19,514 nt of DNA from a virus (Duplodnaviria > Heunggongvirae > Uroviricota > Caudoviricetes): the IMG/VR virus record IMGVR_UViG_2585427793_000004, positions 1 to 19,514 of that record; one strand, given 5' to 3'. The position numbers and the translations under genes are program-made. Positions 1,903 to 17,685 of this stretch are shown piece by piece. The stretch's first letter is position 1. Each line of letters opens with the position of its first letter. The notes beneath the pieces were generated by a model. That model ran no database searches and was not told where the DNA came from. It saw nothing but the letters and a program-made list of their open reading frames with translations.

Positions 1903-2215
1903 TATGTCCCCCGGATTTAAAAATTAATTCAGTGTTGAATAGCTCTTTACTCATTCGCTGTAGCACATCAAGGGCGGCAACTGCCGCCACTTTATCCTGG
2001 CTGGCAATGATTCCCCGCAACTCTTCGATAATCCATGCAGGACTTAATGATTCAGCAATCATCATGCGCTTTTCTGAAATTAAATTTTCTCTGGCCTGCT
2101 CAAAGTGCTGGTATACAACATTATCCAGAAAATAATTTACATCTTGTTCTGACATACCACTGGAAATTAAGGTTGCAGCCATTAAATCAGCATCAGTAAT
2201 CATCTGTATTTTCAT
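1880..2215 (-). CDS. Hypothetical early protein, 111 aa
   Basis: Track ORF 1880-2248 trimmed to the ATG at 2215, which has an AGAGG RBS (MKIQMITDADLMAATLISSG...). Same strand and tight packing with flanking early genes. Confidence 0.5.
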   Translation of the reverse strand: MKIQMITDADLMAATLISSGMSEQDVNYFLDNVVYQHFEQARENLISEKRMMIAESLSPAWIIEELRGIIASQDKVAAVAALDVLQRMSKELFNTELIFKSGGHNEPHIPD

Positions 2216-2390
2216 TTCGTAATACCTCTTCGCAATAAAAGATTTCACCGGGATAACGTTTTTGTATGCGCTCCATCACCTGCATACATGCCTGCTCTGT
2301 GGGCCAGATTTTTTCTGTTACCGGGATAGCATCACAGGCATCATTCCCGCAGGTGCCAACCAGCAGGACAAAGCCAATTGACTTAATCAT
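2193..2390 (-). CDS. Small Cys-rich hypothetical protein, 65 aa, with hydrophobic N-terminus
   Basis: Track ORF 2193-2486 trimmed to the ATG at 2390 (MIKSIGFVLLVGTCGND...), which overlaps the stop of the upstream gene in ATGA-like fashion. Six cysteines. The longer track start lies inside the upstream CDS. Confidence 0.4.
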   Translation of the reverse strand: MIKSIGFVLLVGTCGNDACDAIPVTEKIWPTEQACMQVMERIQKRYPGEIFYCEEVLRNENTDDY

Positions 2391-2922
2391 GCTCACTGGC
2401 TTCCTGTGTTGCCGCCGGAACCGGTGAATAATCAAGAATGAGATAGCGCATGACGTGGTCGGTGATATTCCAGCCACTGGAGCCACAAATAAAACGTCCC
2501 AGCCGGATATCGATATACGCCATCACAAAACGGGGCATTCCCTGTTTGCACATTTCATCGCCCACTTCTGCAACGATGTAAACCGACTCGCAGGTCAGTA
2601 CGCCTGTCGCAAATTCTTTTGCCAGTGCCGGAATGGCATTGCCTTCCAGCCAGGGCAAAGAGCGGCGGAACGCACACCATTGAGCATCATCAACAGCGGG
2701 GTGCTCCGTTGTGTTTCGTCTTACCGGCGGCGTCGGGCGAGGGCGCGGAACATCATAAAACCCGTTGCATTCTGTCAGCATTCCGGCATCAACCGCATCA
2801 CGCAGGAAATACACCATTGAAGAAGGTGGCATATTCATTTTTTCCGCCAGAACGCCACAGGTCAGACGTCCGTAAGCCCGTAATAATGTACTGACACCGT
2901 TCAGAACTTTTGCATCAACCAT
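2383..2922 (-). CDS. Hypothetical early protein, 179 aa, possible winged-helix N-terminus
   Basis: ATG at 2922 with AGGA RBS; Pro-rich linker PRPRPTPPVRR between two halves. No family recognised. Confidence 0.55.
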   Translation of the reverse strand: MVDAKVLNGVSTLLRAYGRLTCGVLAEKMNMPPSSMVYFLRDAVDAGMLTECNGFYDVPRPRPTPPVRRNTTEHPAVDDAQWCAFRRSLPWLEGNAIPALAKEFATGVLTCESVYIVAEVGDEMCKQGMPRFVMAYIDIRLGRFICGSSGWNITDHVMRYLILDYSPVPAATQEASEHD

Positions 2923-3020
2923 TTTTTATTCCTGAGTAATCTGTTTCAGGCGCGAGCAATCCCCTGACGCATCGCGCCATAATTAAAAGAAAGTGAATTA
3001 ATTAAATATTCGTGGTGGTA

Positions 3021-3545
3021 TTAAATACCGGCTTCCTGTTCAAACGGAATAATAGAAAAATCTTCAATGCCTGATTTAACTGTAATTCCGGCGACACCTG
3101 CGACTGCTTTCGGTTCCAGTAAAATCGCTTCCTTGTTGATTTCCTGTTTCGTGCGAATAAAGCGTTGCAGGCCAAGACGCTCCAGCGTTTCCATCACCGC
3201 ATCCACACCGCGAATACTTACCGATGGTGGGCGCTGACGCCATTGCACATCACCGGTAACGAGGTTAGCACTTTTCACTTTGCCGCCGTTCGTCAGCTCG
3301 TCACGGTTCGCTTCACACCATCCCTGAACGCCTTTTGAAAGGGTTTCAATACTGGTTTTAAGGGGTGCAATCTGTGAGGCGTATTTCTCCGTAATCTCAG
3401 CGATAGCGTCATTCATTTCCGTTTCAAGTCGTGCCGCTTCGCGTTGCAGGTCACCAATCCGGCGGATATCACATACCACGGCATCACGGGATTGCGGAAC
3501 ATAAGTCGCTGCGGCGTTCCTGATTCGTTTTGCTGACTTAGCCAT
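3021..3545 (-). CDS. gam: Gam-like host-nuclease inhibitor (Mu Gam, Ku-like DNA-end-binding protein)
   Basis: 174 aa; ATG at 3545 with AGGAG RBS. MAKSAKRIRNAAATYVPQSRDAVVCDIRRIGDLQREAARLETEMNDAIAEITEKYA...NGGKVKSANLVTGDVQWRQRPPSVSIRG...EPKAVAGVAGITVKSGIEDFSIIPFEQ agrees closely with my recollection of Mu Gam. Confidence 0.85.
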   Translation of the reverse strand: MAKSAKRIRNAAATYVPQSRDAVVCDIRRIGDLQREAARLETEMNDAIAEITEKYASQIAPLKTSIETLSKGVQGWCEANRDELTNGGKVKSANLVTGDVQWRQRPPSVSIRGVDAVMETLERLGLQRFIRTKQEINKEAILLEPKAVAGVAGITVKSGIEDFSIIPFEQEAGI

Positions 3546-3565
3546 ATAAATAAAGCTCCTGTTAA

Positions 3566-3853
3566 TTAATATTCGCTGTATACAATACTGGATACAGCAC
3601 GATTGCTTAATTCCATCTTTTTGGCTATCACATGAATAGCCAGCCCTTCTTTATAAAGTTCACGACACAAATATTTGTCGTGCTCACTGATTCGGTATGC
3701 ACACAACGATATTCCGTGCCTTCTGGCATGTGCCCTGAGGGCCGTTGTGGCAACGTTCAGTTTTTTCGCCATTTCTTCAACGGTCATTTTTCCGACACTG
3801 GCTTCGATAAATTCCCGGTCTTCGCGTGACCAGCGTTTACGATTACACATCAT
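3566..3853 (-). CDS. Small DNA-binding protein with two HTH-like segments
   Basis: Track ORF 3566-3865 begins with GTG; the ATG at 3853 (MMCNRKRWSREDREF...) is preferred. Segments MTVEEMAKKLNVATTALRAHARRHGI and LAIHVIAKKMELSNRAVSSIV look like helix-turn-helix units. Confidence 0.5.
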   Translation of the reverse strand: MMCNRKRWSREDREFIEASVGKMTVEEMAKKLNVATTALRAHARRHGISLCAYRISEHDKYLCRELYKEGLAIHVIAKKMELSNRAVSSIVYSEY

Positions 3854-3865
3854 TCCGGTCACCAC

Positions 3866-4285
3866 TCAGTACAACAGGGGTTCGCGCAGTGATGCCGGAA
3901 TATGCCGCAGCGATAACTGAACCGCTTTCAGGGCAAGGGAAGAATACGTCCCCTGCGTCCAGCCTTTCGCCATTTGCCGGTACTCGCGCCAGATGTTCTG
4001 CCACTGCTCCCGTGCGTCCGGGTCTGACGCGCTGATGTATTCTCGGTCCATGACGTATTCCCATAAATCCACATTGAAGGCATTGCCAAACGTAATGGCG
4101 CGGAATACCGCCTCCCCGCAATAACGGGCACAAATGCTGTAATGGTCAAATGCAATCAGGTAAGTCTTTTCGCCATACCCCTTAACTTCGCGCGCGCAAA
4201 TAAATTCGCGCAAGTCTCCACCATTGCTATTACGCTCTTTAATCCGAATTAATGCCTGGATTTCGTTTCTGATTCTGGCGTTCAT
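3866..4285 (-). CDS. Hypothetical early protein, 139 aa
   Basis: Track ORF 3866-4333 trimmed to the ATG at 4285 with AAGGA RBS (MNARIRNEIQALIRIKERNSNGGDLREF...). No family recognised. Confidence 0.5.
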   Translation of the reverse strand: MNARIRNEIQALIRIKERNSNGGDLREFICAREVKGYGEKTYLIAFDHYSICARYCGEAVFRAITFGNAFNVDLWEYVMDREYISASDPDAREQWQNIWREYRQMAKGWTQGTYSSLALKAVQLSLRHIPASLREPLLY

Positions 4286-4305
4286 TGTCAGCGTTCCTTT
4301 GTGAA

Positions 4306-4575
4306 TTAATGTGTTGCGGCATCCGGGTTGCACCGGAATAACTCGCCTTCAACTTCCAGCCCGCGTTCCCTGGCGGATTCCAGCAACGCCCGGGTCGCCT
4401 TCTCAATAATTTCAGACGCCATACTCTTGATAATGCCTGCCATCAGATCATGCGGCCCGACCTGTCCCTCCGGGGATTGCTCTTCCAGCCGCACATTCAT
4501 ATTGATATAAAAATGGTTATTTCTTTGCATCTCAGCACTTTCTGCGCAATTAAATTCGAAGATGACCTTTGCCAT
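4306..4575 (-). CDS. Hypothetical early protein, 89 aa
   Basis: Track ORF 4306-4629 trimmed to the ATG at 4575 with GAGGA RBS (MAKVIFEFNCAESAEMQRNNHFYI...). Confidence 0.5.
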   Translation of the reverse strand: MAKVIFEFNCAESAEMQRNNHFYINMNVRLEEQSPEGQVGPHDLMAGIIKSMASEIIEKATRALLESARERGLEVEGELFRCNPDAATH

Positions 4576-4607
4576 TTTGTTATTCCTCACAAATAAAAAG
4601 TTCACTA

Positions 4608-4835
4608 TTAACGCCAGATAATCTGGCAACCATTAAGACGGGCTGTCCATACAGAACGGGCTACCCCGGACTTATGCTCCATAATTCTGACCGCGTTTTT
4701 TACCAGCTCCACCGGTGGGTATGTGATTTCAAGAATCGGACGAGCCACGCCGAGATATGATTCATTTACATGACTCCCGCGCGCCTGTAACCAGTTCTGC
4801 GCATCCGTCGCCATTTTGATATTCCGTGACATCAT
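4608..4835 (-). CDS. Small early protein, 75 aa, in the position of Mu kil
   Basis: ATG at 4835 with AAGGAG RBS, 14 nt after the B stop ([20 protein letters not shown]...). Assignment is positional only: in Mu the gene immediately after B is kil. Confidence 0.5.
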
Positions 4836-4848
4836 GATTTCGCTCTCC

Positions 4849-5787
4849 TTACGTGCGCAGCAGAGTTGAAATATCAACGTCCAGGTCTAATTCACGGAAA
4901 GCCTGACGCAGATAATCTTCATTAACTCGTTCACCTTTGCCGTGGGCGGTCATGGCCGCAAGGCGCAGCGAGTGGTTCAGGATTCGAAGCGCACCTGGTT
5001 TTTGTGCAATCTGCTGTAATAATTCCCGCTCGTTTTCGCCGGTAATTTGCCAGGCATCCGCAATGGCTTTTACATCATCAATTTTGGTTTTATTAATTGC
5101 CGTCCGCTTTGCAATACGGGAAAACAGGCGGGCAAATTCAACCGTTCTGTTACCGCCGGTCATGTTTGAATAAACACGGTGATTCCCCATCAGAACAAGA
5201 CCAATACGGGCGGATTCCTGTAACAGGCGGAGTTCTTCCAGAACCTCAGCGCCAAGATGATCAGCTTCGTCGATAATGACCAGCCCCTGCGTACCTTCAA
5301 GGCGGCGTCGCAAAGCGCGGGAGAGTGGCCCCTTACGGCGCGGTGCGTCATTCATTCCCAGTTCATAAGCCAGTTCAGTCAGGCATTCCAGAACACTGGC
5401 ACAGGATGGGGTAATGGTGATCAACCAGACATTGTTATTGGTGCGCCGAAATTCGCGGGCCGCTTCAGTTTTTCCCACACCTGGATTACCGCAGATAACA
5501 GAAATACTTTCAGTCAGACTGGCAAAACGCATACTCGTCCAGATTTGGCGTGCTGTTCTGGTTTCCACAAAACGCGGGGGTTCTGGCAGCTCTGCGGCGC
5601 GGTGATAGTTTTCCAGCCAGCGTTCCAGCGTCTGCGCGACACGGTCATTGTCTCCGTTGTACTTGTTATTCACGAATGCGCTTAACGTTCCTGCGGCCAC
5701 GCCGGACTCGCGGGCAATTTGTGCATAAGTTGTTTTTTCACTTTCTACAAGCGTGCGCAGTCCTGCGCGAATATCGGAAATATTCAT
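4849..5787 (-). CDS. B: Transposition ATPase / target DNA activator B (MuB-like, AAA+)
   Basis: 312 aa, the length of Mu B; Walker A GNPGVGKT and Walker [11 protein letters not shown]; N-terminal HTH. Near-identical over long stretches to Mu B as I recall it ([15 protein letters not shown]..., ...[12 protein letters not shown]). Confidence 0.9.
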
Positions 5788-5825
5788 CTGAATAACCTCG
5801 TAATTAAATTTTATTTAAACGTTAA

Positions 5826-7907
5826 TTAAATGGCTTTTTTACGTCTGTTCTGTTCCAGAATATCCAGCGAATGATTCAGATATTCGTCGCGGTCACTCTC
5901 ATATTCATCATCCGGTTCATCAGCCAGTACTAACACGACTTTCTCCACTGGTCTGTAGACGTTGTTGAACAACCCGTTGCCTGTAACAGGAGCAGGCAGT
6001 GTTCGGGTATTCTCTGCCTCGGCCAGTCTGATTTTTTCCTCTCCCCGCTGACGCATCCCTTTGATGCGCTGCTGGCGCTGATGGTATTCTGCAGTGACCG
6101 GGAATGCCTGCTGTTTATTGCCATCCCAGACCGCCTCACAGATATAGGACCCGTCCATGCGGCGGATAATTACTTTTGTTGCATCATGAATATCGTAATT
6201 CACCAGCACCTTATTACCGTGTTCATATTCCAGATCAGTTGAATAATAAATGTTATTAAACAACCTGACTTCACAACGGTTGACTGTACGTTCAATCTGC
6301 GGCATAAACATTTCACGCAGTTCAAGGTCGGACAACCATTCGATTTCTGTCGCTTCTTTTTCCAGTTTGTAGCGTCGGAACTGCGCCGGGGTGTAATGTT
6401 CACCGTTTCCACGTAGTGGTAGCGAACTATGCGGACGGTTGTTGTACCATTCCACACCAGCTTCAATAGCAACAATAAGTTCATTCCATGACGGCAGGTT
6501 TTTTAAAGCCTGCCGTTGTTTTTCTGTCAGCTCCCGTCCTTTGTTTGCCGCATTTGTTGCAGACATCAGAGTCTTTGTCATACGACGAACCGTTCCACGG
6601 TCGGCACCGGTGCCATAATACGTGGCAAACTGACGTGATATACGCATAGCCAGAGTGCGGTTCAGACGCTCTATAATCCCTCGCCCTTGCGGGTTTTCAG
6701 GTATACCAAGACGGTGATCAATTCCAAGACGCGGTAAAACCCCCGTGATATCAGCATCAAACGTGTTGTTAGTTTCACCGCCGCCATTATCTGAATAATA
6801 GATGTACGGTTTTCCGTGATTTTTAATTCCGTGGCGTAACGCATCAGCAACAGCAACCACACTTTCAGAAAGTGCCAGACTCCAGCCCACAATAAAGCGG
6901 CAACTGCCGTCCATGATAAAGGTGACTTCTGGAGAAAATGGATTGCCGTGATCAGGATGCGCCACTTTCATCTTCATGCCGTGACCATCACCAATCCAGG
7001 CATAATTCACCGGCAAAGATAACCAGTCCCGACGCACGAAGCCTTCATACTGGCGGAACTCACTGCCAGTAATGCGTCCGCGTTGTTTCACAACAACCGG
7101 GAGTTTGTTCATTGCATAGCAAACCTGATCATACGACGGCAGTGCTGCACACATCGCAGGATTATCCTGATGCACTTCATACCATTCCGCAGCAAAATCA
7201 TCATAAGCCTCCTGCATTCCGCACCCGTTCGGACGACGGTAAAAACGAAGAAACTCAGGTAACCAGCGAATCTGGTCGGGTTTTATGGGTTGACGTTTAC
7301 CAGGTGCCAGCATGATCAAACGTTCAGCCGGAGTGGTAGCCTTTTTAAAATCAGCAATCCAGCGTTTCAGTGATATTTCACTAAGGGATCGCAATGAACC
7401 TTTTTTCGCATTCGCAGTTGCAACGGTTTCCACCAGGTGTGCCGGTAACTCACCGTTTTTAGCCTGTTTCACAAACTCACGGATGGCAGCAGCCTGGCTG
7501 ATTCCTGGTAGTTCACAAACGCGCAAAACTTCGCTGACAATCGCAATTCGGGCGTCCGCTGTTTCTTTTTGCGTGGCGGTTAACGTTCCGAGTTTCTGCT
7601 CAAACAGCGCAGGACATTTGCGGTAAACCGCAATTTTGCCGTCTTCACGTTTTTTTAAACGCGGAGATTCAGGTTCTTTTGCCTCAGTTGCTGGCTGATT
7701 CATTAACGCCTTAATCTGGCGAGCCTGTAACGCCTTACGCGCCACATCAGGCAAACAGTCGACATGGAACTCAAAAGCCTTTGTCCCTGCACGCTTACGC
7801 ATCATTCCTTCTGATTCGCCGCAATAACGGCGCAATGCTTCCCGAATTCCTTTAATTGTTTTTGGTAATCCTGGTACACCGACCAGCTCTTTGGCGAGAA
7901 CAAACAT
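5826..7907 (-). CDS. A: DDE transposase A (MuA-like)
   Basis: 693 aa, ATG at 7907, 3 nt after the ner stop. N-terminal LPGLPKT motif as in the MuA DNA-binding domain; C-terminal tail ...DEYESDRDEYLNHSLDILEQNRRKKAI matches the MuA C-terminus as I remember it. Sits between ner and B as in Mu. Confidence 0.9.
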   Translation of the reverse strand: MFVLAKELVGVPGLPKTIKGIREALRRYCGESEGMMRKRAGTKAFEFHVDCLPDVARKALQARQIKALMNQPATEAKEPESPRLKKREDGKIAVYRKCPALFEQKLGTLTATQKETADARIAIVSEVLRVCELPGISQAAAIREFVKQAKNGELPAHLVETVATANAKKGSLRSLSEISLKRWIADFKKATTPAERLIMLAPGKRQPIKPDQIRWLPEFLRFYRRPNGCGMQEAYDDFAAEWYEVHQDNPAMCAALPSYDQVCYAMNKLPVVVKQRGRITGSEFRQYEGFVRRDWLSLPVNYAWIGDGHGMKMKVAHPDHGNPFSPEVTFIMDGSCRFIVGWSLALSESVVAVADALRHGIKNHGKPYIYYSDNGGGETNNTFDADITGVLPRLGIDHRLGIPENPQGRGIIERLNRTLAMRISRQFATYYGTGADRGTVRRMTKTLMSATNAANKGRELTEKQRQALKNLPSWNELIVAIEAGVEWYNNRPHSSLPLRGNGEHYTPAQFRRYKLEKEATEIEWLSDLELREMFMPQIERTVNRCEVRLFNNIYYSTDLEYEHGNKVLVNYDIHDATKVIIRRMDGSYICEAVWDGNKQQAFPVTAEYHQRQQRIKGMRQRGEEKIRLAEAENTRTLPAPVTGNGLFNNVYRPVEKVVLVLADEPDDEYESDRDEYLNHSLDILEQNRRKKAI

Positions 7908-7910
7908 AAA

Positions 7911-8159
7911 TCAGGATACCTTCTGAATGTAGCTTTCTGTCTGATAGCGGCTGGGCCAGATAGTTTCCGGTGCAACCCCCAGCGCATCAGCAACAATCTG
8001 CTGATAAGGTTTGCACGGTGTGCGTAAAACACTCTTGAGGGAGTCTTTGCTGTAACCCGCCTGAATGGACAGTGCGCGAAATGACAGTCCCCGTTTGTGA
8101 ATCTCTGCCTTAATGATTTCAGGGTGCCAATCGGCACGCGGATCTTCTTTTCGAGTCAT
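7911..8159 (-). CDS. ner: Ner-like DNA-binding early regulator
   Basis: 82 aa; ...ADWHPEIIKAEIHKRGLSFRALSIQAGYS...ETIWPSRYQ resembles Mu Ner (shared ...IWPSRYQ motif). Divergent from the repressor gene, immediately upstream of A. Confidence 0.8.
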   Translation of the reverse strand: MTRKEDPRADWHPEIIKAEIHKRGLSFRALSIQAGYSKDSLKSVLRTPCKPYQQIVADALGVAPETIWPSRYQTESYIQKVS

Positions 8160-8310
8160 GATTCCACTATCCTAAAAAGTTATCCGTGCGGATAACCGCG
8201 CGGTTATCCACTCGGACAAAGAATAAGAACACAAAAAGAACTTGTCAAATGTTCTTTTGTGTTTTTTATGTGTCTGCACTTTTTGTCTTTTAATTCAATT
8301 GGATAAGCAA
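8160..8310. promoter_or_regulatory. Divergent early/repressor promoter-operator region
   Basis: 151-bp gap between the divergent ner and repressor genes. Three alternating GTTATCC half-sites at 8179-8209 (GTTATCCG-TG-CGGATAAC-CGCGCG-GTTATCC), plus an imperfect palindrome CACAAAAAGAAC-N9-GTTCTTTTGTG at 8230-8261. Confidence 0.6.
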
Positions 8311-8922
8311 ATGAAACGTGAGACTCAAAAAGAACACAATGGTTCTTTTGCTCCTGATTCAAAAGAACCTGTTATCAATAGAATTTTTAAACTAGTAGAT
8401 CGCTATCGTTCGAGAAATGAAGCTGCGAAAGCGTGGGGAATCAACATCAATACGTTACAGAACTATTACAAACGTAAAGACCTCTCTCCAGTACCAAGAA
8501 AAACTCTGTTAGAAAAGATAGCGCAGTGTGAAGGGGTCAGCCTTGAATGGCTTCAAACCGGAGAGGGAAAAGAACCAGAAATGAACATAAAAAGAACTCA
8601 AGACGGTTTAGTGCCGCCTCATTCAGATTTAGATGATAAAATCCTATCGCTGATCCGCTTTTTGTCTGATAGCGAGAAAGAAGCGTTATTCCAGGTGCTT
8701 GCTCGCAAAGGGATAGAAACACTACTTTTTCTCCTTGACGAAGATAATATTCGCTTACTACAAATGGATCGCGTAGTGAAAGAGAAAATCCTGGGAATCC
8801 AGCCCAGAACGCCCGAGGAGCAGGCTTTTGCAGATAACGAGGCGAGAGAGTGTGATACCACTCATCCTTTACGCCATGAACAGTCCAAGAGCCTGACAAC
8901 TAAAAAGCAGCAGGCCCGCTGA
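8311..8922 (+). CDS. Phage repressor with CI-type helix-turn-helix
   Basis: Track ORF 8242-8922 starts at a TTG; first ATG is 8311 (MKRETQKEHNG..., 203 aa). NEAAKAWGININTLQNYYKRKDL...EGVSLEWLQTGEG resembles the phage CI-repressor HTH. Only convincing + strand gene in the window, divergent from ner as the Mu repressor is. Confidence 0.7.
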   Translation: MKRETQKEHNGSFAPDSKEPVINRIFKLVDRYRSRNEAAKAWGININTLQNYYKRKDLSPVPRKTLLEKIAQCEGVSLEWLQTGEGKEPEMNIKRTQDGLVPPHSDLDDKILSLIRFLSDSEKEALFQVLARKGIETLLFLLDEDNIRLLQMDRVVKEKILGIQPRTPEEQAFADNEARECDTTHPLRHEQSKSLTTKKQQAR

Positions 8923-9089
8923 TAGTAGTTTGCCTATTTCATTAGGCTGTTTTCGATGTTGGTGTAGAACTATGTCAACGCTGTAGCGGCCTGCTGATAC
9001 TCATTGCGGTAGATGTATGACTAAAACGAAGAAAAGATTTACTGCGAGCGAGGGAGTTTAAAAACCATCGAACAGTATTTGAAGGTTTT

Positions 9090-9249
9090 TTGACGTAGTA
9101 TCAAAAGTTTTACCCAAACTGGCATTTTCCTTTGATGGTATCAAAAAAGCGGTAACACGAAATCAGCCTAACAACACAACCTAACTCGTTGTTTTATCCC
9201 GCCAAATCCCGTTTATTCTAATGTTCTCCCGGTTTTCTCTCTGGTATCA
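9090..9249 (-). repeat. Mu-type left end (attL-like) with three direct copies of a transposase-binding-like repeat
   Basis: On the element strand the motif TTTGATAC(C/T)A-N5-8-AAAA occurs three times (+ strand GTATCAAA at 9099-9106, 9143-9150, 9245-9252), spaced like Mu L1/L2/L3. Element-strand sequence from 9249 inward, TGATACCAGAGAGAAAACCGGGAGAACATTAGAATAAACGGGATTTGGCGGGAT, resembles the Mu left end as I recall it (...GAAAAAAACCGGGAGGACATTGGATTATTCGGGATCTGATGGGAT...). Exact terminus uncertain by about 10 bp. Confidence 0.55.
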
Positions 9250-9627
9250 AATAAACTCCTTCTCAATAAGCAGGGTGCCACCGGCATAAACAATCTCGCC
9301 CCCCTGCGGATCCGGCATCCATCCAAGCAGGGCTTTCCAGAGTTCTCTCCGGACATCATGAACGGCGTCATAGGCTGCCCACTGCCCTTTTTCATCACGC
9401 TCATTGCTGAGCACAACAATCACGGAGAAGCCTTCTGTCAAATCCTGCCAGTAATCGGTCTGTGATTTTTGTTCCCCCGGTGCATCGTCAGAGGGAACCA
9501 CATAGGCAGCAGGCAGTCGCAGTTTTCCGGCATCAGGGATCGCCTTAAACTGCGCCGCGCCACCAACACGATCCTCAAAACGCGGGCATCGCTCACGCAA
9601 CGCCGCAATTATCGTTGTCAGTTTCAT
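9247..9627 (-). CDS. Phage neck / tail-terminator-like hypothetical protein, 126 aa, possibly 3'-truncated by the Mu-like insertion
   Basis: ATG at 9627 overlapping the stop of the upstream gene. Its TGA stop (9247-9249) falls inside the first bases of the putative Mu-like end, so the native C-terminus may be replaced. Family assignment is a guess from position after a gp10-like gene. Confidence 0.55.
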   Translation of the reverse strand: MKLTTIIAALRERCPRFEDRVGGAAQFKAIPDAGKLRLPAAYVVPSDDAPGEQKSQTDYWQDLTEGFSVIVVLSNERDEKGQWAAYDAVHDVRRELWKALLGWMPDPQGGEIVYAGGTLLIEKEFI

Positions 9628-10148
9628 TTATGCTTCCTTTTTACCGGACGTAACGAACGCTGCAGCTCACGGGACAACAGTTCCTGCGTCCAGTGACGCC
9701 GCCGCTCAATAACGTCAGCCATAAAGTTATTACGCGGGGCCAGCCGGAAAGTCGAAGAATGGTGCTTCTTCTGCCGCTTATCCTTTTTGTCCATTCCATA
9801 CGCTGAATGGCGAACGCCGTAATACAGAAATGCCGGATAATAGGATGCGCCTTCATGGAAACGGCGATTCCCCTGCCCGTTTTTCTGGTTAGGAGAAATT
9901 TTCACCATCAGTCCGGGGCGACGCGTCGTTTTTTTGGGAACGTAATAACCGATGGAGCGGGCCAGACGCCCGGTCTGATATCCCGGATTCTCTCCCGGAC
10001 CGGAACGCCCGCGTTTAATCACCAGACGTCTGGCGTCGCGCATATAGACGCGCCCGATCTGCACAAATGCCCGCCGCAGACGGGCACGATTAAACTCCAG
10101 CTCCTTTGGTTGTTTAAAGTCGACGTGTAAAAATGCTGTCTGATTCAT
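9624..10148 (-). CDS. HK97 gp10-family head-tail joining protein
   Basis: Track ORF 9624-10187 trimmed to the ATG at 10148 with GGGGTGA RBS (MNQTAFLHVDFKQPKELEFNRARL...). Motif RGRSGPGENPGYQTGRLARSIGYYV resembles the conserved PG...TGRLRRSI signature of the HK97 gp10 family. Confidence 0.65.
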   Translation of the reverse strand: MNQTAFLHVDFKQPKELEFNRARLRRAFVQIGRVYMRDARRLVIKRGRSGPGENPGYQTGRLARSIGYYVPKKTTRRPGLMVKISPNQKNGQGNRRFHEGASYYPAFLYYGVRHSAYGMDKKDKRQKKHHSSTFRLAPRNNFMADVIERRRHWTQELLSRELQRSLRPVKRKHK

Positions 10149-10530
10149 GGCATTCACCCCATCGTCGCGCTGTACGCAGTTCCTCACATTCCAGTAATAA
10201 AAAACGTCGCTGACCGTTCAGGTCGCGTATTCGCCGGATCCGGTACTCCTGACCGTAATAAACCACCTCATGATCTGCCGTGATGCCGTGACGGAAACGG
10301 ATTGTAAAATAATGCGTAACGACATTTTCTGTCTGCACTGAGCCCTGATAAGCGGCAGCGCCTGGCTGAGCCACCTTTGCCCAGACATCAAACGACTCCG
10401 GATACGTTGGCTCCGTACCAAAATCAGCGGTGGGTTCATCCACCCGAAGGCGGATCTTTATCCGGCGATTCAGCTCTCCGGGATCCGGTAAAAGGTAAGT
10501 GGCACTGGTCTGACTTTGCCTGATTTTCAT
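10114..10530 (-). CDS. Head-tail adaptor / head closure protein
   Basis: Track ORF 10114-10563 trimmed to the ATG at 10530 (ATGA overlap with the connector stop). ...PGELNRRIKIRL...WAKV...YRIRRIRDLNGQRRFLLLECEEL is the typical head-tail adaptor signature. Confidence 0.7.
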   Translation of the reverse strand: MKIRQSQTSATYLLPDPGELNRRIKIRLRVDEPTADFGTEPTYPESFDVWAKVAQPGAAAYQGSVQTENVVTHYFTIRFRHGITADHEVVYYGQEYRIRRIRDLNGQRRFLLLECEELRTARRWGECHESDSIFTRRL

Positions 10531-10850
10531 AGCGGGACAATCCTGTAAGGGCCAGCAAGCCATCTGAAACTCATTGGCGTTTCCAGTTTCTCCACATCGG
10601 TGATCGTTGAGCGATTTTCATAAAAATGACTGACCAGCATCAGCATTGCCAGACGAACGTCATCAGTCAGATGCATCCCGTCAGGATCGTCTTCCGGAAT
10701 CGTCTCTTCCGGTGCATACAACTTCCTGTTCAGGTATGTCTCTGTTCTTTTCTGTACCGCCTGTGCCAGCAATTTCAGAAAATCGCCGTCACTGTACAAA
10801 CCATCATCGAGCCGGAGGTGAGATTTAATTTCCTCTTCTTTCAGGAGCAT
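10527..10850 (-). CDS. gp6-like head-tail connector protein
   Basis: The supplied track lists this ORF as +, but the translation MLLKEEEIKSHLRLDDG... is only obtained from the reverse complement: ATG at 10848-10850, strong AGGAGG RBS, TGA at 10527-10529. N-terminal ...EEIKSHLRLD... is the usual gp6-type connector start. Confidence 0.75.
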   Translation of the reverse strand: MLLKEEEIKSHLRLDDGLYSDGDFLKLLAQAVQKRTETYLNRKLYAPEETIPEDDPDGMHLTDDVRLAMLMLVSHFYENRSTITDVEKLETPMSFRWLAGPYRIVPL

Positions 10851-10861
10851 ATTTTCCTCCT

Positions 10862-10883
10862 GTGCCCGCCATTACGCGGGCAC
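10862..10883 (-). other. GC-rich stem-loop between major capsid and connector genes
   Basis: Perfect inverted repeat GTGCCCGC-cattac-GCGGGCAC, between the MCP stop (10896) and the connector RBS. On the - strand the U-run precedes rather than follows the stem, so not a canonical terminator. Confidence 0.4.
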
Positions 10884-10895
10884 AAAAAAACCGCA

Positions 10896-12122
10896 TTACG
10901 CAGTGGCTTTCTGGCGGGTTGCAGCCCCAATTTTCATCAGCTTAATCGCCTGAGAATCCACCAGCATACCGCCGGTTCGCTTGGTGGTATAAAAACCCAC
11001 AAACGGTTTGTTGGTGTACGGATCGCGCAGGATACGGGTACCGATGCGATCAACGATGGTATAGCCACGTTTGAAGTTACCAAACGCAATGGCTTTTGCA
11101 TCGGCGGCAATATCCGGCATCTGCTCATTCTCAACGATGCCATACCCTGCCAGAGAAGAAGGCTGACCCAGCTCAATACCCGGACGCCACAGATAATTTC
11201 CGTCGTTATCCTTCAGCAGACGAATGGCAAACAGGCTGCTGTTGTTCATCATGAACTTCGCGCCGCTGCGGTGCGCCTTACGCAGGGTGTAAATCAGTTT
11301 AATGATCGCATCAGCGGTCACGCCGGAAGCCGCACCGGAAGCGATATGCTGAAGTTTGCCAAACTTACGGGTTTTGTCATCTTCATCGGTGGACTCATAA
11401 GCCAGAAAACCTTTTGGTTTTTTGCTGCCGTCGCCACTGGTAAAGGCCATTTCTTCCTGTTCGGCAAATTCCAGCGCCAGCTCACTGTTGATCCAGTCTT
11501 CCACATTGAAGAAAGCGTCATCGAGCATTTTCTGGGTGGCCTGCGGGTTGCCGTAGATTTCCCCCATAAAGGGTTCAATCAGCCCCAGTTTTGAGGTGGC
11601 GGTTTCCGGACGCGTATCCGTTTCCCCCACCCATCCGGACTTAGTGCCGCCCAGATTCACCAGTTTTTTATAATCCGAGCCACCGAGGGTGATCACGGTG
11701 GCTTCCTGGCGCATCACCACCTCATCTTTCAGCAGCGTCAGGATGGTACGATCCAGTTCTTCCGGAATGGCATAACCACCATCTTCATCATTGCCCACCT
11801 GAAGCGCCTTACGTTCAAGTTCACGCAGACCGTCTTCACGCCCCTTGCGCATAAATCCGATAAACGCTTCTTTGTGTTCACCGGCAACTTTATTTTTCGT
11901 GCCGCCTGCCGGACGCTTAACTTCAGCCAGCTCAGCCTCAAGATCGCTTTTCAGGTTTTCCAGCTCGCTGATTTGCCCGTTCAGGCTTTCCACCTGTTCG
12001 GCCAGCTTGCTTTTTTCCTGTTCGATCGCGTCAATGCGCTTGTCGTTTTTTGCCTTAAAATCGTCAAACTTCTGCTGCAAATCCTGCGCGACCTGTTCAA
12101 CGTCTTTAATATCAACAGCCAT
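10896..12122 (-). CDS. Major capsid protein, HK97 fold, with N-terminal scaffolding-like delta domain
   Basis: 408 aa; ATG at 12122 with AGGAG RBS. N-terminal ~100 aa are coiled-coil-like (KLAEQVESLNGQISELENLKSDLEAELAEVK), followed by a capsid domain, as in HK97 gp5-type proteins. Confidence 0.9.
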   Translation of the reverse strand: MAVDIKDVEQVAQDLQQKFDDFKAKNDKRIDAIEQEKSKLAEQVESLNGQISELENLKSDLEAELAEVKRPAGGTKNKVAGEHKEAFIGFMRKGREDGLRELERKALQVGNDEDGGYAIPEELDRTILTLLKDEVVMRQEATVITLGGSDYKKLVNLGGTKSGWVGETDTRPETATSKLGLIEPFMGEIYGNPQATQKMLDDAFFNVEDWINSELALEFAEQEEMAFTSGDGSKKPKGFLAYESTDEDDKTRKFGKLQHIASGAASGVTADAIIKLIYTLRKAHRSGAKFMMNNSSLFAIRLLKDNDGNYLWRPGIELGQPSSLAGYGIVENEQMPDIAADAKAIAFGNFKRGYTIVDRIGTRILRDPYTNKPFVGFYTTKRTGGMLVDSQAIKLMKIGAATRQKATA

Positions 12123-12135
12123 TATTTACTCCTGG

Positions 12136-12786
12136 TTAAAATTTAAGATTTTTCAGTGCATTCAGTGCGACATCCACATCCTCAGCATCACGCAGGGATA
12201 AAGCGCCATATCCCCCGGCCATGAATGCTTTGGCCTGGGTTCGCGAGAGTCCAACATCGCGCAGGACTCGCTCAATAATTTTCTGATCAGGGATCTCCCC
12301 ACGCGCCAGCGCATTTTTCACATCGCTGATGCGTGCTTCATCATTGGAAGGAAACGTCACCAGACTGACCTCCCACAGGTCGATCTCTTTCAGCAGGAAT
12401 ACCCCTTTTTCCCGGTCGTACTCCCAGTCTTTCAGGATGTAGCCAACAGAAAGGCCGGTTAAAGAACCGGCCTTCATATGGGCGTGTGCACGTTTTGCCA
12501 GGGGATCATCATCAACGAGTAATCGCCCCCTGACATAAAGCCCGACATCATCTTCTTTCATTTCGGTGTACACACCGATGGGCTCATCCATGCGGTGCTG
12601 CCAGAGCAACGCAGGCAGCGCCTTTTTTTCGCTCCATTTCTGGAGTGTTGTGGTAAAGGCACCGGGGACCACCACATCATCGTGGCTGTCCTTTACACCA
12701 AAGACGGAGCCATACCCTTCAAACTCACCGGAGTCACTGACAGATTTCAGACTCAGCGGTACATCAAGACGTTGTTTCGTCTGCAT
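12136..12786 (-). CDS. Prohead maturation protease (HK97 family, S78-like)
   Basis: Track ORF 12136-12822 trimmed to the ATG at 12786 with AAGGA RBS (MQTKQRLDVPLSLKSVSDSGEFEGYGSVFGVKDSHDDVV...). Lies between portal and capsid genes. Confidence 0.8.
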   Translation of the reverse strand: MQTKQRLDVPLSLKSVSDSGEFEGYGSVFGVKDSHDDVVVPGAFTTTLQKWSEKKALPALLWQHRMDEPIGVYTEMKEDDVGLYVRGRLLVDDDPLAKRAHAHMKAGSLTGLSVGYILKDWEYDREKGVFLLKEIDLWEVSLVTFPSNDEARISDVKNALARGEIPDQKIIERVLRDVGLSRTQAKAFMAGGYGALSLRDAEDVDVALNALKNLKF

Positions 12787-14005
12787 TGGCGTTATCCTTC
12801 TGCTTACCGGCTTTACTGCCATCGGAGGGTTTCGTGGTCATGTTCATCGGTGTGAGATAGACATCACCACCGGGACGCGGATTCATATCTTCCAGGTCGC
12901 GGCAGTCATTGGGAGAGTAAATTCTCCAGTTGATCCCCGTGGCGTAGGCTTCAAAACGGGATTTCATATCCCCGCGCAGTAACGCCCCGGCGTTAAATTT
13001 GGCGTAAAACTTCCCCTGTTTGCTCTCCCTGACCAGCCCTGTATTGATCCGTTGTTCAATACGGGTCAGATACGGCACAAGGGAATAGTTGATAAATCCG
13101 AGCCCCAGCTCTTCAATATTGTTGAAAGTGGCGCGATCGGTGTTCTGCACCATGTGCAGCGGCACGCGGAAAAGACGACAGATTTCTTCCAGCTGAAACT
13201 TGCGGGTTTCCAGGAACTGGCTGTCCTCGGCGTTCAGTGCCACCGGCTTCCAGTCCAGCCCCATTTCCAGAATCATCGGACGGTGCGCATTACCCAGCCC
13301 AAGATGCCGCTCCTCAAAATCCCTCTTCATGCGCTCATAAGCATCCGGCGTGAGCTTTTGTTCCGTACGCAACACACCGGATGTCACAGCACCGTTACCA
13401 AACAGCCTGGCGCCGTGCTCCTCGGTTGCCGCTGCCAGTGAAATGGCCTCGCGCGCATATGCAATGGGATTCAGACCGACAAGTCCATCCAGCGTCAGGG
13501 TGCGCACATGCCAGATTTCATCCTGGGTCAACACATCCACGGAGCCATCCGGAAACGTCACCTGATAAACCGGCTGCCACTGGCTGTTCAGCTTCGGCTC
13601 CACACAGCCCGGATCTATCGGAAGAAGCTCCACTACTTCCCCCAGCGCCTTCACCTTGTAGGCGTAAAAATTCCCCCGCAGACACAGGCAGACAATAACC
13701 AGCTCCCAGAATTCCTGCGGCGTCATGTAGCCATTGGGTTTTGCTGAAATCAGCTTATGCAGCCGTTCATCCACCGCCCGTGTTTTAAGGGTGCCGCTGA
13801 TTTTGTAGAGACTGCAGGGCAGCATACCAACAGACTCAGCCAGCACCCTGACGCAGGAATACACCGCCGTCAGCCGCATGGCCCGCTGGCTGCTGATCCG
13901 CTTTCCGGTATAGGTGTCGTATGACAACCCCAGCTCTTCCGCAAGCATCCCGGGCGTTGTGACGGGGGTGTTATTTTTACGTTGAAAAAGCCCCTGGAAA
14001 AACAT
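12764..14005 (-). CDS. Portal protein (HK97 family)
   Basis: 413 aa; ATG at 14005 with GGAGGTGA RBS. Size and position between large terminase and protease are canonical. Confidence 0.85.
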   Translation of the reverse strand: MFFQGLFQRKNNTPVTTPGMLAEELGLSYDTYTGKRISSQRAMRLTAVYSCVRVLAESVGMLPCSLYKISGTLKTRAVDERLHKLISAKPNGYMTPQEFWELVIVCLCLRGNFYAYKVKALGEVVELLPIDPGCVEPKLNSQWQPVYQVTFPDGSVDVLTQDEIWHVRTLTLDGLVGLNPIAYAREAISLAAATEEHGARLFGNGAVTSGVLRTEQKLTPDAYERMKRDFEERHLGLGNAHRPMILEMGLDWKPVALNAEDSQFLETRKFQLEEICRLFRVPLHMVQNTDRATFNNIEELGLGFINYSLVPYLTRIEQRINTGLVRESKQGKFYAKFNAGALLRGDMKSRFEAYATGINWRIYSPNDCRDLEDMNPRPGGDVYLTPMNMTTKPSDGSKAGKQKDNANADETTS

Positions 14006-14187
14006 TACTCACCTCCGGAGGCGACCCGGTGACCACGATCGAGATAACGCGCAACCAGCCACGACCAGCACAGACACAGCCCCCCGGCAACAACAAAACC
14101 CGCCGGGGGATAAATCAGCCAGGCGCCATACGCCAGCAAAAGCACACCCAGCACGCCCACCAGAGGCGTGAGAATTATCAGAAACAT
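14005..14187 (-). CDS. Small two-helix membrane protein, 60 aa, inserted between terminase and portal
   Basis: ATG at 14187 with GAGG RBS; stop overlaps the portal [52 protein letters not shown] has two hydrophobic helices. HK97-type modules normally have terminase and portal genes adjacent. Confidence 0.45.
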
Positions 14188-14198
14188 AATGACCTCGG

Positions 14199-15956
14199 TT
14201 AAAGCGAGCGAATACCAACGCTGACCAGATGTTCAGACAGATCCGGCTCCGGTTCACCGCCATTGACCAGCATCCGGCTCATTGCTGTAAACATCGCAAC
14301 AGGGCCGTCGATTTTGGCTTCCGGCGTGGATTTATTCGGGAAGATATTGTCGTTTTTGTCCGGTTTTACCGTAACGTTAGACATCATCCAGTTCATGACC
14401 GGATGATTGCTGTGGTGGAAACGCCCGGCATAGACCAGTGATTCCGTTTCCTTCATGGCCTCTGACAGATTGCGGACCGTCTGCGGAACTTCCACCAGCG
14501 GTATACCTTCTTCAGTCAGCGCCAGACTGAACTGCATTGCGCTCCACGGGTCAAATCCCAGTTCCCTCAGGTTTTCACCGCCAATCCATTCCAGTAGGTC
14601 ACTTTTGATCTGAGCATGATCGATAACATCACCATCCGTCAGGATGAGCTTACCCATCTCCGCCCACTTCCGGTAAAGTTCTGCCTGCTGCCGTGAGCAT
14701 CGTTCCAGCCGTCCTTCCGGAAGCCAGAATTTAAAATCGGCATGAACATGCCCGTTATCCGTTCGCCAGAGTTTTGCCGCCGCACAGATATCAATCTTAT
14801 GAGCAAGGTCGACGCCGACCCACATGGGATATGTTTTCAGCTCATGCTGTGGAGCAATGTATTCGCACTTCTCCCACTTAATCATGTCCATCCAGGCAGA
14901 CTCTGCTGTTACCCACACATTCATGTGTTTGGTAAAAAAATTCACCCGCGCAGAGACCTGTTCTTTCGCTTTTTTCGCCAGGCGACGCAGATCATCCCAG
15001 CGTTTACAGATGCCCAGGCCGGGATTCGCTTTCTGCCAGACCGTTTCATCAAACGGATCATCTCCCTCATCGAGGGTGTAAATAATCGCAAAGTAGGAGT
15101 CGTCTTTTACCGCGCCCTCCACGTCGCTGTTATAGCCTCGCAATACCTTGATGGCGTAATCGCGTTGCTCGTAACAAATCCCTTCCTTGTTAAAGCCAGC
15201 CGTGGTGATACCAAATAACAGGGACTGCAGACGGGCACCGGTTGCCGTTTCCAGAACGTCCCACACGTCGCGGGTTTTATGTGCATGCAGCTCATCAATA
15301 ATGGCGCAGTGGATGTTCAGACCATCCAGGTTGTTTGCATCCGAGGAAAGCGGTTCAAATTTTGATGCGCTCTGCTCCTGGTAAATCGCCAGCTTGTTGA
15401 AATCAAACAACCGCCCGAGTGTCGATCGGGCTTTTCTGACCATATTTTTGGCGTCTTCAAACACGATTCTGGCCTGGTCACGCGTGGTTGCGGCTGAATA
15501 CACCTCAGCCCCGCCTTCACCATCTGCCCCCGTCATATACAGACCGATACCTGATGACAGGGTTGATTTTGCGTTTTTACGGGCGACTTCGTTGTACGCT
15601 GTCCGGAAACGGCGCACCATCACCGGGCGTCCGCTGCCATCGCTGCGCATGACAACTTCCCCGGTCTCTTCATTCACCAGCGGAATGACAAAACCAAAAA
15701 TATTAATGAGGATAAAAACATGCCAGTCCATCAGTTCAATGGGCTGACCTGCCAGCGCCCCTTTTACATGGGGCACAAATTTGTAGAAATTCAGGATGTG
15801 CTGCGCACGGGGTTCACTGAAATAAATCCCCCGCTCTTCGCCGTACTTCAGATCATCAAGAAAACGCTGGCAGGCCAGACGGACAAATTCACCAGCGACA
15901 ATTTCTCCTGCAACAACACGTTCGGCGTAGCGGATCCCGTCAGCCACTTTTGCCAT
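14199..15956 (-). CDS. Terminase large subunit
   Basis: 585 aa; ATG at 15956, ATGA overlap with the small-subunit stop. Size and placement between small terminase and portal. Confidence 0.9.
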
Positions 15957-16438
15957 CAGTCTCTCGCTTTTAAAAGTTCTGCCAGCGGATCAACATCATC
16001 CGGTCCGGCGATATTTACTTTCGCCCGGCTTGCCGGTGACATACCAAATTCTGCAAGCATCGCCCGGATCCGCTTCCAGGCATCCGCTTTCATCGCAGCA
16101 GCCGGGTGTGCCTTAATCAGCACATCACCGTTCTGCGTTTCCGTGCGGTAGGTATAACCCTCAACATCGAGTGTTTCGCAGTGATGCCGGTATTCGGTGT
16201 AGGCTTCCACCAGCAACTCGAGTGCACGCGCATCAAGCTGAGAAATGATCCCTTCCGCATTCAGCTCTTCCGCCATTCGCCTGAACCAGTACTTTCCCTG
16301 CGCCCCTAAATGCTGCGGAATTTTAGGGAGACCTTTTTCGTCCTTTTTAGCGGTTTTTTTGGCGTCTTTAACGGGACGCTTTGAGGGATTGCCTCGTATC
16401 AAATGCAGGCGTGGCGGGGGTTTCGGGGGGCCTGACAT
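15956..16438 (-). CDS. Terminase small subunit (P27-family-like)
   Basis: 160 aa; basic, Lys/Pro-rich N-terminus (MSGPPKPPPRLHLIRGNPSKRPVKDAKK) then a helical domain; directly upstream of the large subunit. Confidence 0.75.
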   Translation of the reverse strand: MSGPPKPPPRLHLIRGNPSKRPVKDAKKTAKKDEKGLPKIPQHLGAQGKYWFRRMAEELNAEGIISQLDARALELLVEAYTEYRHHCETLDVEGYTYRTETQNGDVLIKAHPAAAMKADAWKRIRAMLAEFGMSPASRAKVNIAGPDDVDPLAELLKARD

Positions 16439-16585
16439 AATCGATTTTACCTATCAATCGTTTGATCGCATTCCCAAAAAAAAGTTTTCGAACCTGCGGC
16501 GATGCGAGGAAGGGTTGGCGGGCGGTCCCGGACAGCCAGGGCTGCAGGGATTTGCCCCGCCCCTCCCTACAAGTGAGAATAATTA
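16439..16585. other. Candidate cos / packaging-site region
   Basis: 147-bp non-coding, GC-rich gap between HNH and small terminase genes, where HK97-like phages place cos. Contains GGTTGGCGGGCGGTCCCGG, loosely reminiscent of lambda cosN. Speculative. Confidence 0.3.
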
Positions 16586-16936
16586 TCACCTGATTCGTTC
16601 GCGCGCTGTTTTCGCTTTATGGCAGGGCCAGCACAGACTCTGCAGGTTGCTGTCTGCGTCTGTTCCGCCATGCGCTTTCGGGATGATGTGGTCGACGGTT
16701 TTCGCCTCGCTCACCACACCGGCACGCAGACACAACTGACACAGACCTTTATCGCGCTTCAGAATACGGGCACGAATCACCGTCCATTTTGAGCCATAGC
16801 CACGCTGGTGGCGGCTCAGTCCGCGCTGGTGCTGCACCCAGCCTTCACCACGATGTTTATCACAGTAGCCAGAGCTGTCTGTTGTTGTGCCTGCGCAGCC
16901 TCGCTTACGACAGGCGCGGGGGATCCGTGATGGCAT
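16586..16936 (-). CDS. HNH endonuclease (terminase-associated)
   Basis: Track ORF 16586-17005 starts at a GTG; the ATG at 16936 has a strong AAGGAG RBS (MPSRIPRACRKRGCAGT...). Cys pairs CxxC...CxxC and the H-x-x-P-x-x-x-G-G motif (DHIIPKAHGGTD...CWPCH) are typical HNH; placement before the terminase is classical for HK97-like phages. Confidence 0.8.
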   Translation of the reverse strand: MPSRIPRACRKRGCAGTTTDSSGYCDKHRGEGWVQHQRGLSRHQRGYGSKWTVIRARILKRDKGLCQLCLRAGVVSEAKTVDHIIPKAHGGTDADSNLQSLCWPCHKAKTARERIR

Positions 16937-16997
16937 TGGAATCTCCTTAATACCGACATTATCGCAGCCCCTCACTGAAGAGCTGCTGTAATGCCTG

Positions 16998-17126: not shown

Positions 17127-17299
17127 AATTTTCTCCTGTTTTAATGCCCCTTGCCGCCGGGCAGTTGATCAAAGTTCATCTTGATTCGGCAAGATTTAGA
17201 ATGAATAAGATAAAATTGGCACACGCAGCAGAATTTCATGCTTTCCGGACGCTGACGCACCCTTCATTTTTCAGCAAAATATTCTGCTCTTACAGGCGA

Positions 17300-17482: not shown

Positions 17483-17486
17483 ATCA

Positions 17487-17597: not shown

Positions 17598-17685
17598 AAT
17601 GGACAACCTCAAAAAGAATCTTTTATACTTTCCCACGAGGATTTTCTCCCTACTCACTAATCACAATTTCCCCTTTGACGTGAAA

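Follow-up and report, generated by a model that had tools for sequence, protein, structure and literature searches.

The 19,514-nucleotide (nt) stretch of DNA analyzed here, referred to as the window, is the whole draft contig JOQL01000045.1 of assembly GCA_000714065.1 and very probably carries the left junction of a simple transpositional insertion, by which a Mu-like phage entered the tail-terminator gene of a phiP27-type prophage in an Escherichia coli lineage. Positions 1-9268 were assigned, from gene content and identity to other copies, to the left arm of the Mu-like transposable prophage (about 9.3 kb, minus strand, the contig ending inside the element). Positions 9624-19429, also on the minus strand, hold the part of the phiP27-type prophage lying upstream of the insertion, i.e. 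the lysis genes, the HNH gene and the genes from TerS through the head-tail connectors, as recognized by nucleotide identity and Pfam/PHROG profiles. An initial annotation of the window had proposed that a Mu-like phage transposed into a resident prophage between its head-completion and tail genes, and this proposal is supported by the recovery of both junctions and by the restoration of the empty site.

Junctions in the tail-terminator gene

Open reading frames (ORFs) and profile matches showed an unbroken late operon on the minus strand that starts near 19429, terminates with the stop codon at 9247-9249 and codes for holins, endolysin, HNH protein, TerS, TerL, portal, S78 protease, HK97-fold capsid, head-tail adaptor, head closure, neck/tail completion and tail terminator. 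As the initial annotation had stated, the operon ends at about 9249 without major tail, tape-measure or fibre genes, neither sheath, tube, tape-measure nor fibre genes being detected downstream of it within the window, and a Mu-type end and left arm follow, in which repressor, Ner, transposase and MuB were identified. The last ORF of the operon (9247-9627, minus strand, 126 amino acids) was identified by profiles and by comparison with the full-length gene as a chimeric, truncated tail terminator. It matches positions 8-126 of 150 in PF23840 and 5-124 of 163 in phrog_209, in both cases via residues 1-120 only, and since these matches stop before the profiles end, the ORF was judged to be truncated at its 3' end. 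The full-length gene has 187 codons (564 nt in both phiP27, where it is L43, and the E. coli E100341 prophage, WP_000779447). Codons 1-120 are native in the window; the third base of codon 120 is already Mu-like DNA, yet Leu is kept by chance, and codons 121-126 (IEKEFI) with the TGA stop (9247-9249) are supplied by the Mu-like end. The native 3' end of the gene was thus replaced by the insertion, as had been suggested earlier.

The recommended comparison with uninterrupted copies was informative, as more than 50 of them exist for the host prophage. About 50 E. coli prophages carry the gene intact; these and the Stx2e phage phiP27 are 99-100% identical to window 9269-9650. No orphaned C-terminal fragment of the tail terminator was found as a called protein, all matches reading through …GGTLLDLNRY…. 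The chimeric 126-residue ORF and its neighbours were found in 11 contigs, which come from NCBI, from Logan assemblies of public runs and from a gut metagenome of the Hadza (ENA). Because these contigs derive from different assemblers and samples, the chimeric junction is not a misassembly; stable inheritance within a lineage appears to account for it.

The exact terminus of the element was defined by the point at which homology switches. Homology to Mu-like sequences ends at 9268, homology to uninterrupted phiP27-type prophages starts at 9269, and a three-way alignment placed the switch within AGCAGGG at 9269-9275; no record in the phage collection contains both the 9269-9650 and the 8950-9275 parts. 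The latter is 99.4% identical to the left end of Yersinia phage vB_YpM_Tongde (hereafter Tongde), in which the insertion sequence IS100 directly follows …CTCAATA. As an uninterrupted IS100 already reads …CACA AGCAG GGAATGAG…, the AGCAG beside the Tongde end is target DNA and the phage therefore ends at …CTCAATA, corresponding to window 9268. The same phage occurs in the complete E. coli genomes A21 (in yciH) and STEC388 (in a DUF945 gene), where unrelated bases directly follow …CTCAATA. An exact look-up of the transposase, which is listed in 305 index blocks, was followed by reading of 24 contigs, of which 10 places are shown. Among the matches listed, the identical transposase lies in at least 10 neighbourhoods, where the element always starts with 5'-TATTGAGAAGGAG… and the flanks differ, and A21, STEC388 and Tongde represent three further insertion sites. 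In total, the terminus is common to 14 independent insertions with unrelated flanks, and the termini are 5'-TATTGAG…GCGCGCTTTA-3' throughout. A scan of IMG/VR with the exact left-end pattern gave no matches.

The initial annotation had placed the terminus at 9249. Both the homology switch and the 14 insertions locate it at 9268, 19 nt further out, so that the stop codon at 9247-9249 does lie within the Mu-like end, as had been claimed, though 20-22 nt inside it and not in its first bases. A terminus at the CA of 9271-9272 with a GGGTG duplication was also considered and rejected, since the uninterrupted IS100 already has AGCAG at the Tongde target, phiP27 has AGCA at the site and the other insertions show unrelated bases. 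The targets in the window (9269-9275) and in the IS100 of Tongde share the 7-mer AGCAGGG in the same orientation to the left end (L001 3321-3327; L013 129-135), which may be either a coincidence or a target preference; no obvious consensus was seen at the other insertions.

The right junction was searched for with a pattern, AACGGTTCAGATCCAGCA-N-AAAGCGCG, predicted from the phiP27 sequence left of the break and from the phage's right end as seen in A21, STEC388 and Tongde. In IMG/VR this pattern occurs in exactly one contig, UViG_2585427793_000006 (hereafter L014), which reads in window orientation …GTTCGTAACGGTTCAGATCC AGCA followed directly by TAAAGCGCGCAAAATCATTTGATACC… (that is, …GATCC AGCA and then TAAAGCGCGC…). 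In Mu orientation L014 contains tail-fibre assembly genes, Mom, the right end (terminal part at 2091-2116), AGCA and then the remaining 67 codons of the tail terminator, beyond which lie a gene for a 498-residue sheath protein and the tube, tape-measure, DNA-circularisation and baseplate genes. When both contigs were aligned with the uninterrupted E100341 prophage locus, the window aligned from 11001 and L014 up to 11004; this overlap, AGCA, represents the 4-bp target-site duplication, whose left copy occupies 9269-9272 of the window (TGCT in Mu orientation). L014 and the window joined with one AGCA removed are colinear with the E100341 prophage over 20.8 kb with 99.2-99.4% identity, the junction stretch shown being identical, and are also colinear with phiP27 across the junction. 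A second Mu-like end, a target duplication, the remainder of the interrupted gene and the tail genes, all of which the initial annotation had advised looking for, were therefore found together on L014, with the reservations that the duplication measures 4 bp and that the contig is a separate record. On its reverse complement, L014 6158-6612 differs from E100341 6514-7004 by about 450 bp that do not align, in the tape-measure/DNA-circularisation region, forming a local mosaic patch.

The Mu-like part of L014 (2116 nt) is 99.9% identical to the right part of a further copy, L026. Between the left part of L026 and the window the identity is 99.95%, and on the basis of these two values L014 and the window were ascribed to the same phage strain. 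As the two junctions are exactly complementary and the phage identity reaches 99.9%, we infer that both sit in one genome. Some observations weigh against this reading. The record that holds the right junction is a separate one, from an IMG isolate genome, and its tie to GCA_000714065.1 was found neither through the orphan fragment nor through Mom, the representative of the Mom cluster being only 94% identical. In addition, the middle of the Mu-like element was seen in part in this lineage, where JNMS01000038.1 extends about 30 kb into the element, 10 kb of which were read. A partial Mom, P0173, was rejected as a link to the window assembly, as it belongs to a different insertion near metG, on a contig that does not carry the right-end sequence of L014. 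This contig, L016 (GCA_018358385.1, ABALXJ010000062.1), starts in a mom gene with 97% similarity, runs into the metG region and lacks a right end of the TAAAGCGCGC type; it presumably stems from a related Mu-like phage whose ends are different.

Termini and target duplications of the Mu-like phage

The left end carries a terminal 26-bp sequence, 5'-TATTGAGAAGGAGTTTATTTGATACC (9243-9268, minus strand, with the terminus …CTCAATA at 9268), common to the 14 insertions. Pattern counts on the minus strand revealed three putative transposase-binding repeats, namely the terminal L1 (TTTGATACC, 9243-9251), L2 (TTTGATACC, 9137-9145, about 105 nt from L1) and L3 (TTTGATACT, 9097-9105). Against an expectation of 0.25, the motif TTTGATACY has three copies in the window, confined to 9097-9251 on the minus strand, so that its occurrence exceeds chance. 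It occurs three times per end, with the terminal copy at nt 18-26 at both ends, and these copies are candidate transposase sites. On its own strand the right end reads 5'-TAAAGCGCGCAAAATCATTTGATACC, and because both ends carry ATTTGATACC at the same distance (nt 17-26) from the terminal 5'-TA, the termini are supported independently of the flanks.

All five insertions for which both junctions were available showed 4-bp target duplications (TGCT, TGCG, AGTA, CGAT and GGAA), the fifth base being unduplicated wherever it was informative. Four of them were checked against real empty sites, i.e. the E100341 prophage, yciH and ybcI (each with 100% identity over 300 nt) and an int gene of the lambda type, where the reading frame was restored. 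A 5-bp duplication with element ends AAAGCG…CTCAATA was tried as a candidate; it fits STEC388 (CGCAT) but is contradicted by A21, the window lineage, L025 and L026, in which a T or A belonging to the element itself stands at the fifth position.

The insertion in int, L026 8640-15904 (GCA_052999585.1, JBGLRO010000009.1), is an internally deleted derivative of about 7.3 kb inside a lambdoid prophage, which retains c, ner and A followed by a tail-fibre fragment, a tail-fibre assembly gene, com and mom and is flanked by GGAA. Removal of one GGAA copy restores the Int reading frame, providing a second case in which this phage disrupted another prophage. A second derivative of this "mini" kind, L025 8640-15946 (GCA_012915185.1), lies in ybcI flanked by CGAT, has both ends intact and differs from L026 in its deletion endpoints. 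A further copy, L022 at about 5600-8640 (GCA_040813015.1), is found beside P4-type genes (D5 primase/helicase, DUF5375) and a group II intron reverse transcriptase, and judging from these neighbours it lies inside or beside another mobile element.

Other explanations of the junction in the window were weighed against the insertion of the Mu-like phage into the phiP27-type prophage. It seems improbable, though conceivable, that in the window strain the Mu-like element marks the endpoint of a rearrangement, such as an adjacent deletion or inversion mediated by transposition, that the tail module is missing there or located elsewhere, and that L014 comes from a sister strain with a simple insertion. 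Replicative transposition of Mu is a source of deletions and inversions, internally deleted derivatives of the same phage exist (L025 and L026) and the two junctions are not placed in one assembly; however, a right junction with the exactly complementary 4-bp duplication and the same phage strain would represent the ancestral state of any later rearrangement, and the left junction is kept in 11 contigs. Very little probability was assigned to the idea that the window is a single mosaic phage genome, in which an HK97-type head module recombined beside a Mu-type early region. Phage genomes are indeed mosaic, and phiP27 itself mixes an HK97-type head with a Mu/P2-type tail, but the boundary coincides to the base with a transposon terminus, as at 13 other sites, and interrupts an ORF which about 50 other prophages carry intact. 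The missing 3' part of this ORF, together with the tail genes, lies beyond the other Mu-like end with a target duplication. No record of the phage collection carries both parts, and the check for a single mosaic genome suggested with the initial annotation turned up no phage or genome with this order as one mosaic.

An assembly chimera joining two prophages at a short shared repeat is similarly hard to credit. The window is a short draft contig ending inside the Mu-like element, as might be expected of such an artefact, but 11 contigs from different assemblers and samples share the junction, the two sides have no repeat in common and the break is a true transposon terminus. Finally, practically no credence can be given to a Mu-type TG terminus at 9249/9248 with a 5-bp AATAA duplication at 9250-9254, as the initial annotation had envisaged. 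The minus strand does have a TG at 9249-9248, and TG…CA ends with a 5-bp duplication are canonical for Mu (PMC8705779, PMC4378225); nevertheless, 9250-9268 is conserved phage sequence in 14 out of 14 insertions, the TG lies within the L1 repeat TTTGATACC, and the right junction shows AGCA, the 4-bp duplication observed at 9269-9272, instead of AATAA. The mosaic, the chimera and the TG-terminus readings are refuted by these findings.

Gene content of the two prophages and proposed course of the insertion

All 9268 nt of the Mu-like part of the window are 99.94-99.99% identical to copies at nine other chromosomal sites, whereas comparison with Tongde gave 90.8% identity with about 72% of this part aligning. 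In Mu orientation the left arm comprises the left end, c, ner, A, B, kil, gam, gemA, mor and the start of a GH108 lysozyme gene; Pfam and PHROG profiles identified transposase, MuB, Ner, repressor, Gam, GemA, Mor and Mom. The Mu-type, c-like repressor is encoded on the plus strand (phrog_3037, E = 1.6e-42), the longest ORF spanning 8242-8922 and the public annotation 8311-8922 (203 amino acids). On the minus strand lie the Ner-like early regulator (HTH_35, 7911-8159), preceded by a Pe-like promoter with a sigma-70-like TTGACA-17-TATTCT arrangement (8248-8220), the gene for a 693-residue DDE transposase (5826-7907) and the adjoining gene for a MuB-like AAA+ transposition protein (4849-5787; PF09077 Phage-MuB_C, E = 3e-33; phrog_296, E = 9e-115). 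The Mu-like prophage appears intact as far as it is visible and appears to be kept silent by its own repressor. The phiP27-type late operon reads toward ner-A-B, antisense to c, and a weak hairpin with a T-run (8906-8921, minus strand) is found just outside the repressor stop, between the late operon and the Mu-like early region. That read-through might couple the induction of both prophages is pure conjecture, and so is any role of the terminator-like hairpin.

The transposase combines a Mu I-alpha-type N-terminal helix-turn-helix, an rve-type core, a Mu-transpos_C domain and a MuA-like C-terminus, with matches to PF09299 Mu-transpos_C (E = 8e-19), to the Mu DNA-binding domain PF02316 (E = 1.5e-6), weakly to the rve core and to phrog_310 (E = 4e-181). 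Residues D307 and D373 align with D269 and D336 of MuA, and E413 is probably the third residue of the DDE triad. A sequence search against solved structures returned weak matches only, to retroviral integrase cores (E about 1e-4) and to the MuA I-alpha domain (E = 1e-3). Its nearest relatives are the transposases of Tongde (98.4%), of Pseudomonas phage VW-6B (48%) and of phages of the D3112/JBD/MP29 type (about 30%), the latter two over about 90% of the length. As a whole the enzyme is 23% identical to MuA, yet the last approximately 30 residues, DDEYE.(D/E)RDEYLNHSLDILEQNRRKKAI, are the same in both. Nucleotide homology to Mu, D108 and SfMu sets in again at about 5912, within the last part of A (3' end of the gene, 5826-5912). 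The C-terminal tail of MuA contacts MuB and ClpX, and the position at which homology sets in suggests a recombination boundary inside A and a module swap in which the portion contacting these partners was retained. With little more than even confidence, we are inclined to regard the inserted phage as an undescribed transposition variant within the enterobacterial Mu group, which would unite a transposase distant from MuA and nearest to those of Pseudomonas phages, a MuA C-terminal MuB/ClpX tail and a Mu-type B with TA…TA ends and a 4-bp stagger, and which would be highly active in E. coli, where almost identical copies occupy many sites, some of them within other mobile elements.

The genes of the host prophage were all recognized by Pfam/PHROG profiles on the minus strand. 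They are the P27-family TerS (15956-16438), TerL (14199-15956), portal (12764-14005), S78 prohead protease (12136-12822), HK97-fold capsid (10896-12122), head-tail adaptor (10527-10850), head closure (10114-10563) and neck/tail completion (9624-10187). No stx genes were detected within the window. The 10.2 kb from 9269 to 19514 are colinear with the uninterrupted E100341 prophage at 99.4% identity and with phiP27 (NC_003356) at about 95%. The displaced tail module, with sheath, tube, DNA-circularisation protein and a gp47/J-type baseplate, corresponds to a contractile, Mu/P2-type tail. By sequence the host prophage belongs to the phiP27 group. The term "HK97-like" used in the initial annotation holds for the head genes only, given the contractile tail.

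A course of events can be proposed in which a Mu-like temperate phage of about 33-37 kb (its relatives range in size from 33.5 to 36.7 kb), nearest to Tongde, integrated into the tail-terminator gene of the resident prophage. If the enzyme acts like MuA, retroviral integrases and other DDE enzymes, the transposase and its MuB-like partner would assemble on the TTTGATACY repeats at both ends, and the 3'-TA ends would be joined to target phosphates 4 bp apart, gap repair then yielding the AGCA duplication. A simple insertion of this kind would put the Mu-like right end against …GATCCAGCA and the tail genes. The tail terminator, left with 120 of 187 residues and a foreign tail of six, would presumably be non-functional, and the sheath, tube, tape-measure and baseplate genes would now lie about 35 kb from their own late operon. 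An excised composite genome, with about twice the size of phiP27, would be too large to package, and the stranded host prophage should make no infectious particles, so that the inactivation proposed in the initial annotation is a sound inference. Since the same phage is also found in a lambda-type int (L026) and beside P4-type genes (L022), the nesting is the expected outcome of near-random transposition and implies no special relationship between the two phages; hits on other mobile elements recur, in the lambdoid int gene and at the P4-like element.

Resolved to the base, the junction documents a natural case in which one temperate phage has presumably disabled another through transposition, unlike the integrase/attB route described in Shiga toxin-producing E. 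coli, and illustrates how a prophage of the phiP27 type (Stx2e-phage type) can be locked in its position. What matters more than the nesting itself is that the inserted phage has non-canonical ends, a 4-bp stagger and a hybrid transposase. A terminal CA/TG is regarded as a hallmark of Mu-type elements, and the 5-bp duplication serves to delimit Mu-like prophages. As the phage breaks both the TG…CA and the 5-bp rule, pipelines that seek these features will misplace the ends of a widespread E. coli phage, as happened in the initial annotation. Moreover, a natural hybrid of a divergent catalytic core, a MuA C-terminal tail and a MuB-like partner may help to establish which parts of the transpososome set end specificity and target stagger.

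Comparison with known systems

The inserted phage has several features by which Mu-type phages are recognized, namely a DDE transposase, a MuB-type neighbour, a repressor divergent from ner-A-B, the gam/gemA/mor/com/mom genes, end repeats and many insertion sites, while TG…CA termini and a 5-bp duplication are not among its features. It shares with Mu, D108 and SfMu the order of the left arm (end, c, ner, A, B, kil, gam, gemA, mor, lysis), the Com/Mom genes at the right end and about 87% nucleotide identity over the B-to-gam region (window 2417-5912), whereas the repressor, ner, A and the terminal approximately 30 bp are unrelated at the nucleotide level. As in Mu, each end contains three repeats, here putative transposase-binding sites, with L1 set apart from L2 and L3; the L1-L2 spacing in Mu is similar to the approximately 105 nt seen here. 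Insertion is near-random in Mu, and the 14 different flanks of the window phage are in line with this behaviour. Element nt 31-77 approximately (window 9192-9238, minus strand, AAAACCGGGAGAACATTAGAATAAACGGGATTTGGCGGGAT) are homologous to Mu nt 25-70 approximately, a part of Mu that overlaps the pac region, and this would fit shared Mu-type packaging genes. In contrast to Mu, the termini are 5'-TA…TA-3' and not TG…CA, and 4 bp of the target are duplicated where Mu duplicates 5 bp.

Tongde (MT591577), assigned to Muvirus in the GenBank taxonomy, has the same two termini as the inserted phage. Its record MT591577.1, labeled as a complete genome, includes Yersinia pestis DNA, i.e. a glyS fragment (1-522) at the right end and 2.3 kb of IS100 (istA/istB, 37183-39492) at the left; the phage proper thus spans 523-37182 (36,660 bp), and the IS100 genes are annotated as phage genes. 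The presence of host DNA from two loci in a virion-derived record is an indirect hint of replicative transposition and packaging of flanking DNA. We found no published description of the ends of Tongde in the open-access literature. The transposases of Pseudomonas phage VW-6B and of the D3112/JBD/MP29 group are the nearest outside Tongde, but the Pseudomonas transposable phages are siphoviruses with 5'-TGT termini (PMC4378225) and late genes unrelated to those of Mu.

TG-CA or TGT ends are described as conserved in Mu-like and B3-like phages, with duplications of 5 bp in Mu and 6 bp in B3 (PMC8705779, PMC4378225). Transposable prophages of Leptospira have TA-TA ends, which were treated as unusual, together with a 6-bp duplication and B3/Tn552-type transposases (PMC8705779). 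The window phage resembles them in the non-canonical TA at both ends but differs in being an enterobacterial relative of Mu with a 4-bp duplication, whereas the Leptospira prophages come from spirochaetes and have the 6-bp duplication and B3/Tn552-type enzymes. No report of a 4-bp duplication for any transposable phage was found in the open-access literature, subscription journals being outside the scope of the search.

As regards the host prophage, gene order from the lysis genes through the head and connector genes is identical to that of phiP27 and E100341-type prophages, the difference being that the tail-terminator gene equivalent to L43 is split in the window by the Mu-like insertion. 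The combination of an HK97-type head with a Mu/P2-type tail is a property of phiP27 itself, and the host prophage differs from HK97-like siphoviruses, which have a non-contractile lambdoid tail. Prophages inside prophages have been described in Shiga toxin-producing and enteropathogenic E. coli, where site-specific integrases act at attB copies located in the host prophage (Nakamura et al. 2021, PMC8112680). No integrase was found at the window junction, which consists of a transposon terminus and a 4-bp duplication. The present case is therefore similar to these systems in that one E. coli prophage resides inside another and the host prophage is, here presumably, defective, but it differs in that the inserted phage entered by DDE transposition at an arbitrary site in a structural gene.

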